Program-made: the position numbers and the translations under genes
The notes under the pieces: model-generated
Database searches by the model: none
What the model was told of the DNA's origin: nothing
The model's input: the letters and a program-made list of their open reading frames with translations, nothing else
Shown: piece by piece, positions 16,649 through 54,411 of the stretch
Position numbering within the stretch: the stretch's first letter is position 1
Layout of the letters: every line of letters starts with the position of its first letter
Source of the DNA: Naegleria gruberi
Lineage: Eukaryota
Length of the DNA stretch: 64,000 nt
Assembly (NCBI GenBank): GCA_000004985.1
Contig: GG738891.1
Direction: 5' to 3' (one strand)

Positions 16649-17282
16649 ATTGTTTGTTTACTTTCTTAAATTTGGACAATTTGTGAAAAGTTACTTATCG
16701 AGAGAAGATGATTGTAATTGCATTAGATTGGCATTGTTAATAGTGTGAATATTAAATGTTTATTTCAATAGATGTATTTATGAAATTGACTAATTCATGT
16801 TCATGTGAAAATTTGTGAATTTTAGTAGAAAATTGACTCAGTCAAGAAGAATTACACTCGTGAGGGTTGCAATCCTCTCAATAATATGGCGAATTTCATT
16901 TCATATTGAACTTTCACAATATGTTCATTGTAATCAAGTAATTTAATATATTTAAAAATCTTAACATTCAATCCTTTCCCATCTCTCAATTTAATCCATC
17001 CTCATGTCCCTTCCAAATTCTCCTATAATTATTCATCTCAATATTCTAAACATTTTCCTCCTCCCTAAACAGCAATTGCTTCTTCCTGAACATTCACCCA
17101 ACAAACCAACAGCAACAACAACCATATGAAAGATCATCATCCTCACCACCACCAACCAAGCAACCTTATCAACAAACCAATCAAGTCATTCACCACCCAC
17201 TCTCTATCCAACCACCAAATATCACTTCTTATCAAAAGACAAAGAAAAACCAATTGCTCTTGAATTTTTAAATAGATAAAAA

Positions 17283-45909: not shown

Positions 45910-48627
45910 TTATTTCTTCTTTTCTGACTTTTCCTCAGAACCAGGAACAAGCTTGTAGGTATGGAGCTTGTCAAAAACGAGAGCAACTCTCTTTTTCAAC
46001 CTTGTTGTATCTGTTATCATTTCAATTTCTTGTTGAAGAGTTTTATCCTTAGGGTTCTTGGTTAAAACAGTGCTCAGCAATTGACCTAATCCGAAATCAA
46101 CTAACTCTTCCCAACCTGGTGATTCATCGTGCACATCAGAAACCCAGTGATTTTGTAAAACTTCCATTTCTTTGTCTTCCAAAGAAAGATTCAACTTCAT
46201 TAATAAATGCATTAATAAAGTTGCACAAGAAAGGTTTTGAGAAAGTTCTTTCAGATTGGTTTGAGTCTTTTCAATCTTCTTTGTTAGAGTCAGAATGTCA
46301 TCATAAGTCTTTTCAAACAAAATGTCCAAGCTATTGATTGAGGTTGGATTCTTATCCTTGTATCTGACCATTAAACGCCTTTGTATTGTTCTGAATTGAG
46401 CTGCCAGTTTGTCCAATTGCTCGTAATAAATTTGCAAACCAAGACGGTTCTTAAAGTGTTCGTCTATAATATCAAAGTATGGGTAGAATGGAAGATTTTC
46501 TGTACTTTCAATCTTAATTGGAGATTTATCATCTGACTGCAGGGCAACATTACAGGCCTTCAATCTTCTTGTTGTTTCTTTGGCGAGTAAATACATAGTT
46601 TCAAAATTGGCAGATTGAATTCTATATCTTCCTGCATTCTTTGATACTAAGAGAGTTGCATCTTTTCCATTAGCATATTGGAATGTTAAGATGTTTTCAC
46701 TCACTAAATTTTCAGTTTCAGTATCTCCCTGTGGTATCAAATCTTCAAACAATGTAGCAATTGGTATTGGGGATTTGTTAGTTTCTAAAGTGATTTTGTG
46801 AGTTGTAACTTTCTTAGCAGGAACAATATCTCCACACAATCCGAAAGGAAGCAAAAAGCTGCAGTTAGATACACGAGGCTGACCTGTTAAAGGATCATGG
46901 TAAATTGCACTAACAGAAGCCTCAAGAGTCTTTGGAGTGCATTCATTACCACCAAATACAGTTATTGGGAGAACATATGGTGTTCTTTGAGACCCAGCAT
47001 CTTGAAAGAGTAAGTTGCCTAATAATTTGAAAATACTTACTAAGGACACTAATGTAAGTGGTTGGTGCTATCACATAAAATGGTTTTTCCACACTCATAT
47101 TAATTGTAATATTTTCTAATTGGCATTCATCACCTGTAAAACCTATGTACAACTTGATGGTCACTCTCTTATTTTCAGTTCCAGTACTGAATGACTCAGG
47201 GTCAACACTAGTTGGTATTTGAGCTCTTATTACTAAACTTTCATTTGCTTCATCCTTTTGATTTCTCTTTGTTTTTCTTATGATTTGTTGAAGACGCTTG
47301 GTTTCTTCTTCCAAACGCTCATAATCAATATCTTTGTTTTCAAGAGTTGGAACAGAGTTCGAAATGGCTCCAGTACCAAGATAATTTAAAGCAAGGTTTC
47401 CTTCTTCATCCAAAGAAACAACCATACCCTTGATTCCATTAAAATTAGCAACTCTAATACTCACAGGGGAAGAATTGCACCCAGCTGCCCAAGCAAGCTT
47501 AGGATCAGAATAGATCATTATTGTCTTGTTGTGAGTTCCCAAAATCAAATTTTGTCTTTCAGCTTTGGATATAATTTAGATTTAATACCTATATGGTCAG
47601 TACTTACTAGGATCTGAGCTTGGTTTGTAGAGATCTACTGCACTAGGGAAATAGTCAAATCTCATTTGTGTCATTAATTCTCCATTTTCCTTGATACTGA
47701 ATAATGTTCGTTCTCCTATAACTAGAATTTCAGATTGACCTGCTGATAAATATTGACTATATCTTCCAACAAGAATGTCATAGACTTCTTCTCCAACATT
47801 TACAGTCCAATTTGCTTTTACCTTTTTTCCGTTTGTATTTTCTTTTTGATTCGATCCGGATGAGGCTGCCAACATTTGATATCTTTCAACATTAGACCAA
47901 TAATAAAACAGCCCTACTTACTTGTAAGCTTCAACTTCCATCGATGAATTAAATGTAACAAAACTGTCCATAGATTTGCTGTATGTTAATGGTCCAGGAA
48001 CTAAACTTGTTGACAAGAATCTTTGGAAAGTAAAGTGGTCTTGCTCAAAGAATGATAATTGGCCATCAAAAGATTGAATACAAATATAATCCTTTCCGAA
48101 AGCACCTCCAAAAGGGCCATAACAAAAGTTGTAAGATAATCTTTGAAGAGCATGTTCATAATACAAATGAAGTGTATAACCTTCCATAGAATTTGGATCT
48201 TGATCATTGCTTGAAACAAAAGACTCGGAGGCTTGTTTTACAATAGTATACACTGCAAACTTTTTAGGCATCAAAACACCAAGAGCATTATCCCTTGAAT
48301 TACTAGAATAAAATTCAAAGCTCAATCCTTGCCTCAACAACTCACAAAAACTTACGGAATAAATTTACCAATTTCAACTTGCAAAATTGGTGCTTCTAAT
48401 TGTTTTTCCAACAATAAATCAGTTGGATAAAAAGTGTTTTTCTGAGGTTTATAAATTCTGAGCATTCCAGATAAACTTCCTACAACAATTTTATCCAAAT
48501 AATTATCTTGACTAGAATTTGGGGGTCTCTCATTGTCTACATTTCCTATACAAAGAGAACCCTTATCAAATTCTTCATTCACTCCGCATTTAGTCGACCA
48601 CCATTCTCGAAGTTTAAAAAGGGACAT
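45910..48627 (-). CDS. BBS9: BBS9/PTHB1, BBSome subunit, about 846 aa, 5 exons
   Basis: Exons 48356..48627, 47922..48302, 47608..47882, 47041..47562 and 45910..47000. The first two use track coordinates, because the printed text is off by one base there. Introns are 53, 39, 45 and 40 nt. The N-terminus MSLFKLREWWST... matches human BBS9 MSLFKARDWWST. Collinear matches include VEIGKF, SFDGQLSFFEQDHFTFQRF, GERTLFSIKENGEL, RYRIQSANFE and FRTIQRRLMVRYKDK. Confidence 0.85.
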
Positions 48628-48821
48628 TTTTTTGTACTTGTATTGAGATTGTATATTTGAAAAAATTGGCGGGAAATTTTGTCTTTATGCCTCAAACCAA
48701 CCTTTTGAAAAGCTTGAAATTTTCATCATCCACAAAATTAATTACAATTCAATCATGTATTCATCATTGCAATTCTTCAATTATATGATAATGATAATTT
48801 ATTGTACAATAGTCACAAAAT

Positions 48822-51800
48822 TTAGTGGGTTTCCTCAGTTTGAGCAGTGGCAGCGCCAGGTTGTGTGGTTGGTTGTTGTGGTTCGACATATTCTTCGAAT
48901 TGGTGAGGTTCGAATGTCTTGACATAGGTAGTACGGATGAGTGGGTAAGGTAAAATTTCTTCAAAGAAACTGATATCCAAATGTTTGGATGTCTTGACAG
49001 TTCTATCAAGGAAAATGCAACAAGTATCGTATTGCTTTTCATAACCCTTAGTACCATTCATGTGGAGAAGAATCATGGCAGCAAACTCGGCGAATCTCTT
49101 GTAATCCTTTTCAAGTTCAGCAATCTTATTGGACTTGACACTGTGAACAGCTTGAATCAATCTGTGGAATGCAGTAATTGACAAGTGGGTATTGTTATAC
49201 CAACCTTCAAGATTGACATCATAGACGCTGTCCTTTTCTTTCCAAGTGGTATTGAGAATAGTGAGAGCAGCAAAGGCCAATGGTAAGACTTCCCAAACTT
49301 GAGATCTATCAACGAGTGGAGACAACTTCAATCTGAGAGGGTGATCAACATCAGAGAAACCACAATCAGTAGCCAAAGCGTCAATTGGAAGGAACTTGCC
49401 ATCACCATAATAATTTCTGGAATATTGTTCGTAAGCACTGTCAATGACATCATAAATAGCTGGGGCATTTCTTCTAACTGAAGATTGAAGAGCAGATTGT
49501 AAACATTGTCTGAATTCCAAAATACCACCAAGTTGAATGAGGAGTGGCATGAGTGTTTCGAGAGGAACAAGAGTTTGTCTGACCTTCTTATCCAAAACAA
49601 ACTTTTCATCATAGAGTTTGCTTTCAATATCCTTGAGGGCATTGTTGGCTTGGGACAAAACTTCTCTGATCTTTTCACTTCTTACATAAATTTCATCCAA
49701 CAAGGATTGATTCAAAGCTCTGAAACCATACGGACCAGTCAAGGTGATGAATGCCTTCAATTCATTGTAATCCAAGTAATTTTCAACATTGTAACTTTGA
49801 ATTGGAGTATTGGCAGTTGAGATGAAGGTTTGTCTGTTTGGATGGAAGAGAGTCTTATACTTTTGTGGATCTGAAACCAAATCAGTGAACCATTGTGAGT
49901 AGATTGAAATCAAGTTGGCTGGTTCTGTTGTTTGAACAACACCGAATGGTGAATCAACATAATTCAAATGCACAAAGTTATCCAAGAATGAGTTCAGAAC
50001 CAATTCTTCAGTATTGATATTGACACATTGTTCAATAATCTTTAAGGATGACATGAAAGAGTGTAATTCACTCAACAATTCTGATGGAGAAATGAACTTT
50101 GGAGTAAGAGCGTCATTCTTCATTTCCTTAGCTGTCAAATCAATAGTAGTGGCAATTCTCTTGATATACTCGGCAATGTATTCTTCGAGAACAGTTCTTA
50201 AGTATTCAACAGGGTAGAAAACATTGTCATACACAACGATTTCGTCGTATCTAGATAATGAGTACAACAATTGAGTGACATTTCTTTCCAAATCACGCAT
50301 ATCATTGATAGAATTATTTTCAAAGTGACTTTCGACACCTGGAACTGCTGGTTCTTCGATATATTGCTTGTTCTTACCATATCTACGGAGGATAGTTTGG
50401 GCAGCAACATCACCACCGATTTGATGAGTTAACATTCTGTAACCATGAGAACTGTTCAACAAATCAAGACCCTTTCTAATTCTGTCGACTAATTGTCCGA
50501 GCATTTGTTCAGCAAATTGAACTGATTGTTGACCAATTCTGTTTCTGAGGGATGGATTAAGTTGAGGGTGAATATTATCAGCATATGTGTTAAGAATTCT
50601 GATAAAAGCAGTCGAATACAAAGGTTGACTCTTTGAACCAATAAGACCTTCAGAGAAAATCTTATCAACATCAGCTCTGTAGAAGTACAATTGCTTGAGG
50701 GATCCCTTTTCGACCAATTCATCATATAAACCATCGACGTGCTTTGAGAATACAACAATCTTGGTCATGGTATTAAACAAGAGTGTCATTTCAGGCAATG
50801 TTTGTTTGAATTGATAACCGGACAGGAATGATTCAACTCTCTTCCAATTCAAACGCATGGCTTCAAAATCTTCACTATTTTGAATATCTGACATGATTGA
50901 TTCCATAATACCAGTAACTTTGGCAAGTTCAAGCTTGGCTTTATGTTCTTCGATCAATTGCCTGGCCTTATTATAATACAATCCACGAATAATCTTGAGA
51001 GAGTATTTTCTAATAACATCTCTGTGTTGCACACAAACGTACATCATTTCATCCATGAGGTAGATCATTTCACTAATCAAAGTTTCCTTAACTTCCTTGA
51101 ACTTCTTTTGAGCAGACTTTGGAACGTATCCATTGTGATGGAAATACCACATGATTTCATTTCTGGCCATTGAAATAGCAGCCAAAACCAAGTTGAATTT
51201 TGGTCCAAGCAAACCAGGTTGATCCTTCATCATGTTGAGCAAGGACTTTAATTGCAATCTGAGATAATTTCTCAATTCCTTGTGATAGTCATGACATTTT
51301 TCAGCAGCAATTTCTGCAAGTTCCTTCAATGATTTCTTTTCCTTTTTCAAATCTCCAAACTTTTTAATCATGACATATTCTTTGAAAGGATCGTGAATGT
51401 TGTAAACTTCATCACCGTAGAGTGGAATGACCAAGTTATTGGCCAAAACTCTTTGTAAGAGAATTTCATAACAACGAAGAGGAGCATCCTTGTCCTTCTT
51501 CTTGCTGACTACAACTGGTGTCATTCTTATTTGTTTTTCTGGGGCACGAGCAAGTGCATCAGGACAACAAGCATAAATAATAGCAACCCATTCTACGATA
51601 TCTTGATAACAATTCAAATACAAGTATGTTTCATCAACAGCAGGGAATGGAATTCTATCTGGTTCAGACAACATTTCCAAAGGTCTTTTAACATTCAAAC
51701 CACCAAAAGTACCTCTTTCAAATGCTGGAATGAGAGCAATGAGTGCTTTACCAATTTGATCTTGAATTGTGAACCATTTTTCTTGGAAACGAGGAATTGG

Positions 51801-52622
51801 ATCAGCAAAATCTTTAAACAATTGCCAAACTCGTTGAATGTTTGGTTCTGCTTGACCGTTCAATTTCAAATAACTCAAGTTTAACAAACAAACAATAAGT
51901 TCCTTGTCCTTAATTCTATTCAGCAACAAGATCAATTTCACATATCCAACCAACATTTGCAAATAATCATAACATGTTAAAAAGTTGACATCTTGTAAAA
52001 AATCAATATTGGCATTTGTAGACATTTCTAATATTGTTTGTTGAGCATGTTCTGTCCATTGTAACAATTCTTTAAATGTTAAATAAATTGGATGTACTTG
52101 ATTAAACAGTGTTGTCATGTTATTCAATGCCCAATCAAAGCCTTGAACCTTTTCCAATTCATCAATGGCAATATGTGGAGCATCTTTTAATAATTTAGCG
52201 AACATTTTCTTCATATCCACAGGAAGTGTGGACTTCATAATATCAGGTTTTAAATCATTATCACCAAGTTCATTCTTTATCGTATATAAACGTTGGAGGA
52301 GAGCCTCAGAATGTTGTTTTAAAACAAAAAGCTAAAATAGTTTTGTTTCGAATATATTTTGCATCAAGTAGTAGTGCAGGATAGCGTTTGATAAATAAAA
52401 ATTGAAGAGAGGAGGGATCATAGTTAGTATAAATTATTATGAATCAGAGAGTGATAAATCCATTCAATCCACACAGTGAAAAATAATTTTCATCATCATC
52501 ATTAGAATAATTAAAACGATTGTCGTTTAATACGAAATAAATTGTTGATCAACAATAGAATAATAATGTTAAAGAGGAGATGATGTGTTTGCTCTGCTTA
52601 CCTTCTCTGCTACCTTTGCCAT
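48822..52622 (-). CDS. NCKAP1: NCKAP1/NAP1/Hem, SCAR-WAVE complex subunit, about 1176 aa, 2 exons. The first exon is absent from the ORF track.
   Basis: A 21-nt exon 1 at 52602..52622 (MAKVAEK, GTAAGC donor), then a 270-nt intron 52332..52601, then exon 2 at 48822..52331. The join reads MAKVAEK LFVLKQHSEALLQRLYTIKNELG, against human [25 protein letters not shown]. Internal [30 protein letters not shown] matches human [30 protein letters not shown]. Confidence 0.85.
52432..52512 (-). ncRNA. candidate intronic box C/D snoRNA inside NCKAP1 intron 1
   Basis: On the minus strand: AATTATT cta ATGATGATGATGA (C box) ... TTTATCACTCT CTGA (D box) ttcat AATAATT. A 7-bp terminal stem flanks a 5' C box and a 3' D box about 60 nt apart. 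The host intron is about 5 times longer than typical introns here. Confidence 0.35.
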
Positions 52623-52815
52623 GGTGTGATTTACAGTGGTGTGTTGGAAATTTTTTTAGATAGAGAAGAAGGATTGACAAGTGATTGAATTGATTGGTCT
52701 GTTTCTGCTACGCGAAGATAAGCAAAACAGAGCACAGTAAAAACATGGCAAAAACTACAGTGAAGAGATCTAGACCTCAATTACTTATTAGCATGGTTGT
52801 TAAGGAATACACATT

Positions 52816-52821
52816 GAAAAA
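52816..52821 (-). terminator. Pol III terminator T-run immediately downstream of the 5S gene
   Basis: TTTTTT on the minus strand directly after ...CTGTAGTC. Confidence 0.5.
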
Positions 52822-52940
52822 AGACTACAGCACCACAGGTTCCCAAGTTGTCTCCAACCTCAGTACTGATGTGGCTCGACGATGCTTAACTTCTCAAATC
52901 GGACGGGATGAGGTGCATGAATCGTGATATGGCCGTAGCC
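52822..52940 (-). rRNA. 5S ribosomal RNA gene, about 119 nt, a single dispersed copy
   Basis: The reverse complement reads GGCTACGGCCATATCACGATTCATGCACCTCATCCCGTCCGATTTGAGAAGTTAAGCATCGTCGAGCCACATCAGTACTGAGGTTGGAGACAACTTGGGAACCTGTGGTGCTGTAGTC. It is collinear with vertebrate 5S, GTCTACGGCCATACC...GGGAGACCGCCTGGGAATACCGGGTGCTGTAGGC. The 5' and 3' ends pair and a T6 run follows. Confidence 0.9.
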
Positions 52941-53096
52941 AACAATTTGTTTGAATTTATAATTATTAAGGGCAAATTCACCAGTCAATATTGATAGAGA
53001 ATTATAAATAATACCACTCTAATTTTCAAAAACAAGAATGAACCTGTAATATTGCTATTATTTTGTAATAAGCTTATTTTTTAATAGATTTAAAAA

Positions 53097-53494
53097 ATGG
53101 ATCAAAGTGATGAGTAAGTAATTGATGAAAAATATTCTTGTTTAACTGATCATTTGGAATCAAATTATACACCAATTAATATTCTAATTATAATAATATT
53201 AAATATTGATTTATTTTGTATAGTTATTGTAATTTAGTAAATGCTATTCAATTATTGGAAAGACAAAAGGCTCAAGTGGAAAAGGATGTAAAGGAATTAC
53301 AGGAGAGACTCGCTCAGGAAAAGAAGGGAATGACCCTCTCCGAGCAATTACTAGTCTCGGAACAAGTTGTACAACAAGTTCCTAAAATTGATTTTGCTCT
53401 CTATCTTCAATTTTGCAAGGAACACAATGTGCACTTGGCAAAAGATGTTCAACAAGCTCTCGAAGCCTACATAAAGGAGGCCAAGAAGAAATAA
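53097..53494 (+). CDS. small coiled-coil protein of about 95 aa, 2 exons
   Basis: Exon 1 at 53097..53113 (MDQSD-, GTAAGT donor), a 110-nt intron, exon 2 at 53224..53494. The heptad pattern is coiled-coil-like. Function unknown. Confidence 0.3.
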
Positions 53495-53646
53495 TTATTT
53501 ATGATGTAAAACTGAGGAGAAAACAAATGATTACGAGGAGTGAGACAGTTCTTATTCATCAATTACTTAGTACGAAAGTGGAGCTGAATAAACACTCAAG
53601 CTCACATAATTTACAAAATTCACATATAGGTTTATTATTGAATTTA

Positions 53647-54411
53647 TTATTGGATAAGATTAAACTGTTTGAAAAGTTCAATGTATTCACCACCCAAATG
53701 ATTTGCCATATCAACAGCATTGGATTTGGATTCAGACTCAACTGAATTAGAATAGGCATCACAAACAATTCTATCATTCACACCATTTCCACATCCATAT
53801 TCCAAAAGTAATTTAACAGCTTCCAAATCCTCATTTTCTAAAGCTGCACAGATTGGTGATGTTGAAACGTTGGTAACATCTCTAGGCATATCACTTGAAT
53901 CATAATAGGTGCATGTGTAGCTTCTATTAATTTTAGGATCAGCACCTCTTTCCAAGAGAATTTTCATTGCTGTGTGATCCTTCTTTGTAACAGCTCCATA
54001 CAGACAAGTGGAAGAATCATTGCCATATCTTACAGTGGATGTATCATTCCTGGTGGCGTTAGGATTTACCTTAATTTCATCAAGCAAATATTTCATCACG
54101 TTATGATGACCTTTATCGAGTGCTCTACATAAGGCATCACCAGTGAAGCTATACTTATAGTAGGTATAGTATTTTTGTGTGGTAGGGTTATGATGCTCCT
54201 CACAGAGTTGTTTAGCTTTCACCGAGTCCAATTTTGAGAGAAGGGCTTTAAGGTTCTTCAGACAGGTAGTTTCATCGTCTGTCTTGTTGATGGTTTCATG
54301 TACGTTCTCAACAGTTACTTTCATTGTTTTTTTTAAGTTTTCTTCTACTAACCGTGGATGAGTAGATGAACTTGTTGCATCTCTCACTGAAATGGAATTA
54401 TTGAGGACCAA
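53647..54411 (-). CDS. ankyrin-repeat protein, 254 aa
   Basis: ANK motifs include ALDKGHHNVMKYLLDE, LYGAVTKKDHTAMKILLERGADP and ICAALENEDLEAVKLLLEYG. Confidence 0.55.
   Translation of the reverse strand: MVLNNSISVRDATSSSTHPRLVEENLKKTMKVTVENVHETINKTDDETTCLKNLKALLSKLDSVKAKQLCEEHHNPTTQKYYTYYKYSFTGDALCRALDKGHHNVMKYLLDEIKVNPNATRNDTSTVRYGNDSSTCLYGAVTKKDHTAMKILLERGADPKINRSYTCTYYDSSDMPRDVTNVSTSPICAALENEDLEAVKLLLEYGCGNGVNDRIVCDAYSNSVESESKSNAVDMANHLGGEYIELFKQFNLIQ

Follow-up and report, generated by a model that had tools for sequence, protein, structure and literature searches.

The minus strand at 52822..52940 of the window, the 64-kb stretch of Naegleria gruberi DNA analyzed here, very likely holds a genuine nuclear 5S rRNA gene of strain NEG-M, which belongs to a dispersed family and, judged from its sequence, is probably active. 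The copy is an ordinary family member and already known, as both the number of N. gruberi 5S genes and their dispersed positions were published in 2012 (Feng et al. 2012, PLoS One 7:e36878, PMC3369914). The gene, its associated elements and the adjoining reading frames are as follows.

52822..52940, minus strand: complete 5S rRNA gene, 119 nt (Rfam RF00001, fold, covariation)
52919..52920, minus strand: derived TC dinucleotide at RNA positions 21-22 (window copy only)
52877..52891, minus strand: box A of the internal control region, +50..+64, AGTTAAGCATCGTCG (exact and unique consensus match at the canonical position)
52844..52861, minus strand: box C-like element, +80..+97, GAGGTTGGAGACAACTTG (best consensus match, canonical position)
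52954..52969, minus strand: upstream A/T-rich TATA-like element TTAATAATTATAAATT, -29..-14 (direct reading and regular expression)
52817..52822, minus strand: T6 run, RNA polymerase III terminator signal (direct reading, GTC-TTTTTT-CAATG)
52694..52927, plus strand: mechanical ORF of 77 aa with a TTG start, no gene (bacterial-code ORF finder)
52602..52622, minus strand: likely NCKAP1/Nap1 exon 1, 21 nt, ATGGCAAAGGTAGCAGAGAAG, encoding MAKVAEK (orthologue N termini)
52332..52601, minus strand: likely NCKAP1 intron, 270 nt, GT-AG (splice model)
48822..52331, minus strand: NCKAP1/Nap1 exon 2, with the stop codon at 48822 (Pfam Nckap1, 1054.9 bits)

A scan of the whole 64-kb window at the Rfam gathering thresholds returned one match only, RF00001 (5S_rRNA) at 52822..52940 on the minus strand. 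The first-pass annotation had called a complete 5S rRNA at this position, and the covariance search bears it out with a score well above threshold (100.3 bits against a gathering value of 38, E 1e-20) and an alignment that runs from model position 1 to 120 of 120 with no truncation. The minus-strand read is GGCTACGGCCATATCACGATTCATGCACCTCATCCCGTCCGATTTGAGAAGTTAAGCATCGTCGAGCCACATCAGTACTGAGGTTGGAGACAACTTGGGAACCTGTGGTGCTGTAGTCT, followed by TTTTTC, and every motif that had been quoted in support of the call is found in it (ACGGCCATA, CCCGTCCGAT, GAAGTTAAGC, GTCGAGCC, AGTACTG, GGAGAC...CTTGGGAA and GGTGCTGTAG). When the 119-nt RNA is folded, the minimum-free-energy and the centroid structures both take the canonical form, in which helix I, helices II-III and helices IV-V meet at a three-way junction. 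For an alignment of 11 copies (the window copy and 10 related ones), RNAalifold gives a consensus with 39 pairs, 17 of which show compensatory changes, meaning that both sides have changed with pairing kept in at least one sequence of the alignment. Loop A (CCAUA), loop C (CCCGUCCGAU) and loop E (AGUAC...GGGAAC) are all present in the window copy and vary little or not at all within the alignment of 11. Neither Rfam nor blastn at word size 7, with the gene and its flanks as query, detected a further 5S copy or fragment in the 64-kb window, ARAGORN found no tRNA genes in the window, and a permissive Rfam search of 51800..54000 for a linked SL RNA, snRNA or tRNA gave only sub-threshold chance matches.

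Promoter-like elements and a terminator signal, by which such a gene could be transcribed, are present. The box A consensus that is matched exactly is the one used by Feng et al. 2012; the box C-like element has 2 mismatches among the specified consensus positions, and the very degenerate intermediate-element consensus gives 10 matches, none of them at +67. Within the TATA-like element, TATAAA occupies -21..-16 (52956..52961). The A/T-rich stretch at -29..-14 is unchanged in the orthologous contig L005, a metagenome contig (ENA ERZ929261) that is 98.7% identical to window 48513..53106 (4.6 kb) and has a 5S gene (98.8 bits) in the corresponding position. Comparable upstream elements are seen in the Naegleria-like environmental copy L012 (AATTATAGAATT at -25..-14) and in Willaertia (TATTTAAAT at about -32), and a TATA box has been reported for N. 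gruberi 5S genes, along with TFIIIB and TFIIIC subunits and no recognizable TFIIIA (Feng et al. 2012, PMC3369914). At the other end of the gene, the six Ts read at 52822..52817 agree with the Pol III terminator that had been proposed there, the first T (52822) doubling as the last modelled base of the RNA. Of the 14 other retrieved copies, 12 have a run of at least three Ts that begins with the last modelled base or with the one that follows it, the exceptions being L020 and the truncated L004.

At genes of type 1, Pol III starts transcription once TFIIIC and TFIIIB have assembled on the internal and upstream elements. By this scheme, Pol III would read the 5S gene from a type-1 internal promoter made up of box A and the box C-like element, probably helped by the TATA-like element at -29..-14. 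Transcription would start at the G at 52940 and terminate in the T6 run at 52822..52817, and the RNA, as would be expected of the product of such a gene, would bind uL18 (L5) and join the central protuberance of the 60S subunit.

Two further short motifs lie outside these elements. At about -40, 5' of the TATA-like element, GAATTTG (window 52973-52979), GAAATTTG or AAATTCG is found in the window copy, L012 and L003; as it recurs in three Naegleria/Willaertia-type copies with independent flanks, the motif may be an upstream promoter element, three sequences being too few for a firmer statement. On the minus strand at 52750-52760, 70 nt past the 3' end of the 5S gene, CTGTAGTTTTT is a near-repeat of the 3'-terminal CTGTAGTCTTT plus T5. 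It may be a second, reserve terminator or a coincidence, as short repeats of such quality in two copies are expected by chance.

The genome-wide 5S complement is available from Table S1 of Feng et al. 2012, which lists 279 putative N. gruberi 5S genes on 117 scaffolds (PMC3369914). Over all 279 coordinates, the median gap between neighbors on the same scaffold is 33.9 kb; 161 of the 162 gaps exceed 1 kb, 1 is below 1 kb and 32 are below 5 kb. Table 1 of the same paper (PMC3369914) scores N. gruberi 5S as 'tandem arrangement: yes'. Contrary to that entry, the published coordinates describe a dispersed family with some loose clusters, which amounts to a correction of the literature. No tandem 5S array, with head-to-tail repeats every few hundred bases, is present in the window, which has a single copy in 64 kb. 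With a genome size of about 41 Mb, 279 copies would give about 0.4 expected 5S copies per 64-kb window, and one copy is therefore unremarkable. A lone 5S gene had been thought informative about rDNA organization; dispersal is, however, the rule here, and because it was already tabulated (279 copies, 117 scaffolds, PMC3369914) the window copy adds nothing new on that subject.

The copy itself can probably be equated with Table S1 entry R33762 (scaffold_47:244821-244937) on the basis of a coincidence in coordinates: the entry corresponds to window position 52822 plus 192,000, within 1 nt at the start, and is the only one of the 279 whose offset from the window coordinate is a multiple of 16 or 32 kb. 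The other entry on scaffold_47 (166483) falls outside a window starting at scaffold base 192001, in agreement with the single match. In the similarity column of Table S1, R33762 stands at 0.733 and the largest class at 0.75. Identity to a human 5S sequence is 0.708 for the window copy and 0.717 for L005, against 0.733 and 0.75 in the table, and the query of Feng et al. was therefore a different sequence. A value of 0.733 in place of 0.75 corresponds to two fewer matches and would fit two derived positions, though the identities to human 5S do not reproduce the metric of the table.

In its surroundings, the window has the character of a protein-coding region, with 30-36% G+C, long ORFs and occasional short introns. 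An exact-sequence look-up showed seven window ORFs, which flank the 5S gene on both sides, to be identical to annotated N. gruberi proteins, all of them encoded on a single contig of 339,217 bp. Among them are EFC40592.1, EFC40593.1, EFC40595.1, EFC40657.1, EFC40659.1 and EFC40599.1, and the Rad52-like EFC40667.1 / XP_002673411.1 (strain NEG-M) lies across the 5S gene from the other identical proteins. The 1138-aa ORF adjoining the 5S gene encodes Nck-associated protein 1 (NCKAP1), its best named relatives being those of N. fowleri (83% identity) and Willaertia magna (71% identity). The homology search with NCKAP1 returned no N. gruberi protein from NCBI, though the neighboring genes are annotated; the deposited annotation may lack this gene model or contain a wrong one. 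The true model likely has the 21-nt exon 1 and the 270-nt intron listed above, as the spliced coding sequence is in frame (1176 aa) and its N terminus, MAKVAEKLFVLKQHSEALLQRLYTIK..., agrees with those of the N. fowleri (MSKIAEKLYVLRQHS...) and W. magna (MAKVAEKLFILKQHS...) orthologues.

The 5S gene is followed on its own strand by NCKAP1, with about 195-200 bp between the 5S terminator and the NCKAP1 start codon. Upstream, the nearest supported coding region belongs to a minus-strand ankyrin-repeat ORF whose end is at 53647, about 700 bp away, and no match to 18S, 5.8S or any other rRNA, 28S included, was found by Rfam in the window. The position that had been described for the gene, between protein genes and outside any array or rDNA unit, is thus the one that it occupies. 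That a catalogued 5S copy stands in the NCKAP1 5' flank means little beyond annotation. Positions 52602-52623, which include exon 1 (ATGGCAAAGGTAGCAGAGAAG), form an imperfect inverted repeat of 22 nt (73% complementary) with 52744-52765, probably by chance; the partner of exon 1 in this repeat, ATGGCAAAAACTACAGTGAAG, begins the Met version of the antisense ORF.

That ORF, on the plus strand at 52694..52927, is spurious, as had been supposed; its frame results from translating the strand opposite the 5S gene and the NCKAP1 5' region. It covers the antisense of the conserved RNA over 52822..52927 (106 of its 234 nt), and its remaining nucleotides are the complement of the NCKAP1 5' flank. The chance that it is a real protein gene overlapping the RNA gene is negligible: the frame is open for 77 codons, but it starts with TTG in a eukaryote, has no Pfam match, and in its two Met-start versions is absent from a collection of about 15 billion predicted proteins. 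In addition, the counterpart in the 98.7%-identical L005 contig is ruined by frameshifting indels and three stop codons. A mechanical ORF track applied to a eukaryotic window has in this case led to a false protein call antisense to an RNA gene.

Outside the L005 ortholog, the 5S gene is not a fixed neighbor of NCKAP1. No 5S lies within 10 kb of NCKAP1 in N. fowleri (L001, L002) and none lies upstream of NCKAP1 in L007, a Naegleria-like contig; as the W. magna 5S is found downstream of PTHB1 instead, syntenic conservation of a 5S near NCKAP1 was rejected. Two homeologous or allelic W. magna contigs, L003 and L004, each carry one 5S between PTHB1 and the next gene, and with about 1 copy per 150 kb its presence near NCKAP1 is compatible with chance. 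The L003 copy (16820-16938) is intact at 107.3 bits, and the L004 copy (16778-16892) is rearranged and shortened at its 3' end (115 nt, 83.8 bits), being a single dispersed copy caught decaying. The W. magna slot that corresponds to the 5S slot of N. gruberi is taken by a tRNA-Gly(GCC) gene that lies on the other strand, about 270 bp ahead of the NCKAP1 start (L003:9663-9733, L004:9666-9736). No Pol III gene was found in the NCKAP1 upstream slot of N. fowleri or L007, and the sharing of this slot by a 5S gene in N. gruberi and a tRNA-Gly gene in W. magna may be coincidence.

A scan of JGI metagenomes with a 27-nt invariant stretch gave 13 contigs with one 5S each and unrelated flanks. Eight VFQM/VFQO contigs (L008, L009, L011, L013, L014, L017, L018, L019) carry dispersed 5S paralogues of a single eukaryote, again with unrelated flanks, which differ by compensatory changes in helix II: GCGTAG/CTGCGC, GTGTAG/CTGCAC and GCATAG/CTGTGC.

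The sequence of the window copy departs from its relatives at RNA positions 21-22, where TC replaces the GA seen in the L005 ortholog, L012, Willaertia and the environmental copies; the majority N. gruberi 5S sequence is inferred, as the one metagenome scan gave 1 Naegleria-like copy (L012) and 12 from other eukaryotes. The pair 21-57, which closes helix II, is G-C in 10 of the 11 aligned copies and U-C in the window copy only, and the Rfam alignment marks the pair broken by U21 as non-standard. The change sits outside box A and box C. The score of the window copy is 6 bits lower than that of L012 (106.3 bits), the environmental sequence nearest to it, and the L005 copy has a derived change of its own, C6 to A, which breaks one helix I pair. 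Between the window and L005, the 5S gene differs by 3 substitutions in 119 nt (2.5%), the upstream flank by 5 in 166 (about 3.0%), the downstream flank up to the NCKAP1 ATG by 3 in 199 (1.5%) and the NCKAP1 ORF by 0.29%, with the reservation that L005 is a short-read metagenome assembly whose 5S could in principle be contaminated by paralogous reads. As the substitution rate of the gene is similar to that of its flanks and far above that of the adjacent coding sequence, there is little detectable constraint on this copy. With so few events, the comparison shows only that the window copy is not measurably more constrained than spacer; low constraint would be expected for one of 279 copies and would be compatible with early decay too.

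These observations raise the question of whether the copy is a pseudogene that has fallen silent or is decaying, drifting as a redundant member of the family and no longer serving the ribosome. The two-base change that is unique among 11 copies and costs G21-C57, the different derived change that breaks a helix I pair in the orthologous L005 copy, and a between-strain substitution density no lower in the gene than in its flanks are what such a reading would lead one to expect, as is the place of the matching Table S1 entry in the 0.733 similarity class and not in the 0.75 majority class. Single copies do decay, as is seen in one of the two W. magna copies (83.8 vs 107.3 bits). Against this, the window copy is full-length, its 100.3 bits come close to three times the gathering value, and it loses one of about 39 pairs with its fold the same; no changed position falls in box A, the box C region, the TATA-like element or the terminator, all of which are intact, and three substitutions are too few for measuring constraint. 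A pseudogene is thus unlikely. The first-pass annotation had allowed that this copy would be a pseudogene if it were not expressed while abundant tandem arrays elsewhere differed in sequence; a derived difference that breaks one helix II pair was indeed found, in partial agreement with that condition, but it is too mild for that verdict. From the loss of the U21 pair, the copy may be under weak constraint or in early decay, and a genuine, probably active gene remains the preferred reading.

Of the more far-reaching readings, it is very doubtful that a Pol III gene upstream of NCKAP1 acts as a boundary or promoter-proximal element, or that the U21-C22 variant is expressed and contributes to ribosome heterogeneity, the observations not going beyond coincidence. 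That the copy arose by retroposition, or is a SINE-like mobile element derived from 5S, is scarcely credible. The dispersal of the family would suit such an origin, as would a weak 16-nt direct repeat (81% identical) whose two copies lie 58 nt past the gene and 87 nt before it; however, two-copy short repeats of that quality are expected by chance, and the repeat is not a convincing target-site duplication. The copy moreover lacks a poly(A) or A-rich tail and an appended non-5S body, there are no other fragments in the window, and the upstream TATA-like element, which an RNA retrocopy would lack, has been kept. No empty-site allele with precise boundaries and a duplicated target site was found in another N. 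gruberi strain.

As a dispersed gene of its own, the window copy shares with the N. gruberi family a putative internal control region, the upstream TATA box and the T-run terminator, and is likewise unlinked to the 18S-5.8S-28S unit (PMC3369914); the TC at 21-22 sets it apart from the closest relatives retrieved. In comparison to vertebrate (Xenopus or human) somatic 5S, the RNA is collinear, with 85 of about 120 positions the same as in a human 5S sequence, the coordinates of box A and box C are the same, and a T-run terminator is found in both. Vertebrate 5S genes depend on TFIIIA, whereas no TFIIIA is reported for N. gruberi (PMC3369914) and a TATA-like element lies upstream of the window gene. 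The vertebrate genes also stand in head-to-tail arrays, in contrast to the solitary gene of the window.

Dispersed 5S genes are found in Neurospora crassa and Schizosaccharomyces pombe too. In Acanthamoeba castellanii, about 100 dispersed copies are spread across most chromosomes (PMC9528979). As in Naegleria, the 5S genes of these three organisms occur singly among protein genes, each with its own promoter and terminator. The 18S, 5.8S and 28S genes of Naegleria are present only on a 14-kb circular extrachromosomal element in thousands of copies (PMC5805870), which leaves 5S as the only kind of rRNA gene on Naegleria chromosomes. The view that there are no rRNA genes in Naegleria chromosomal DNA is thus true only for 18S, 5.8S and 28S, with 5S as the overlooked exception (cf. 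PMC5805870). Naegleria differs from A. castellanii, N. crassa and S. pombe in belonging to a separate lineage, the Heterolobosea, and in keeping its large rRNA genes off the chromosomes.
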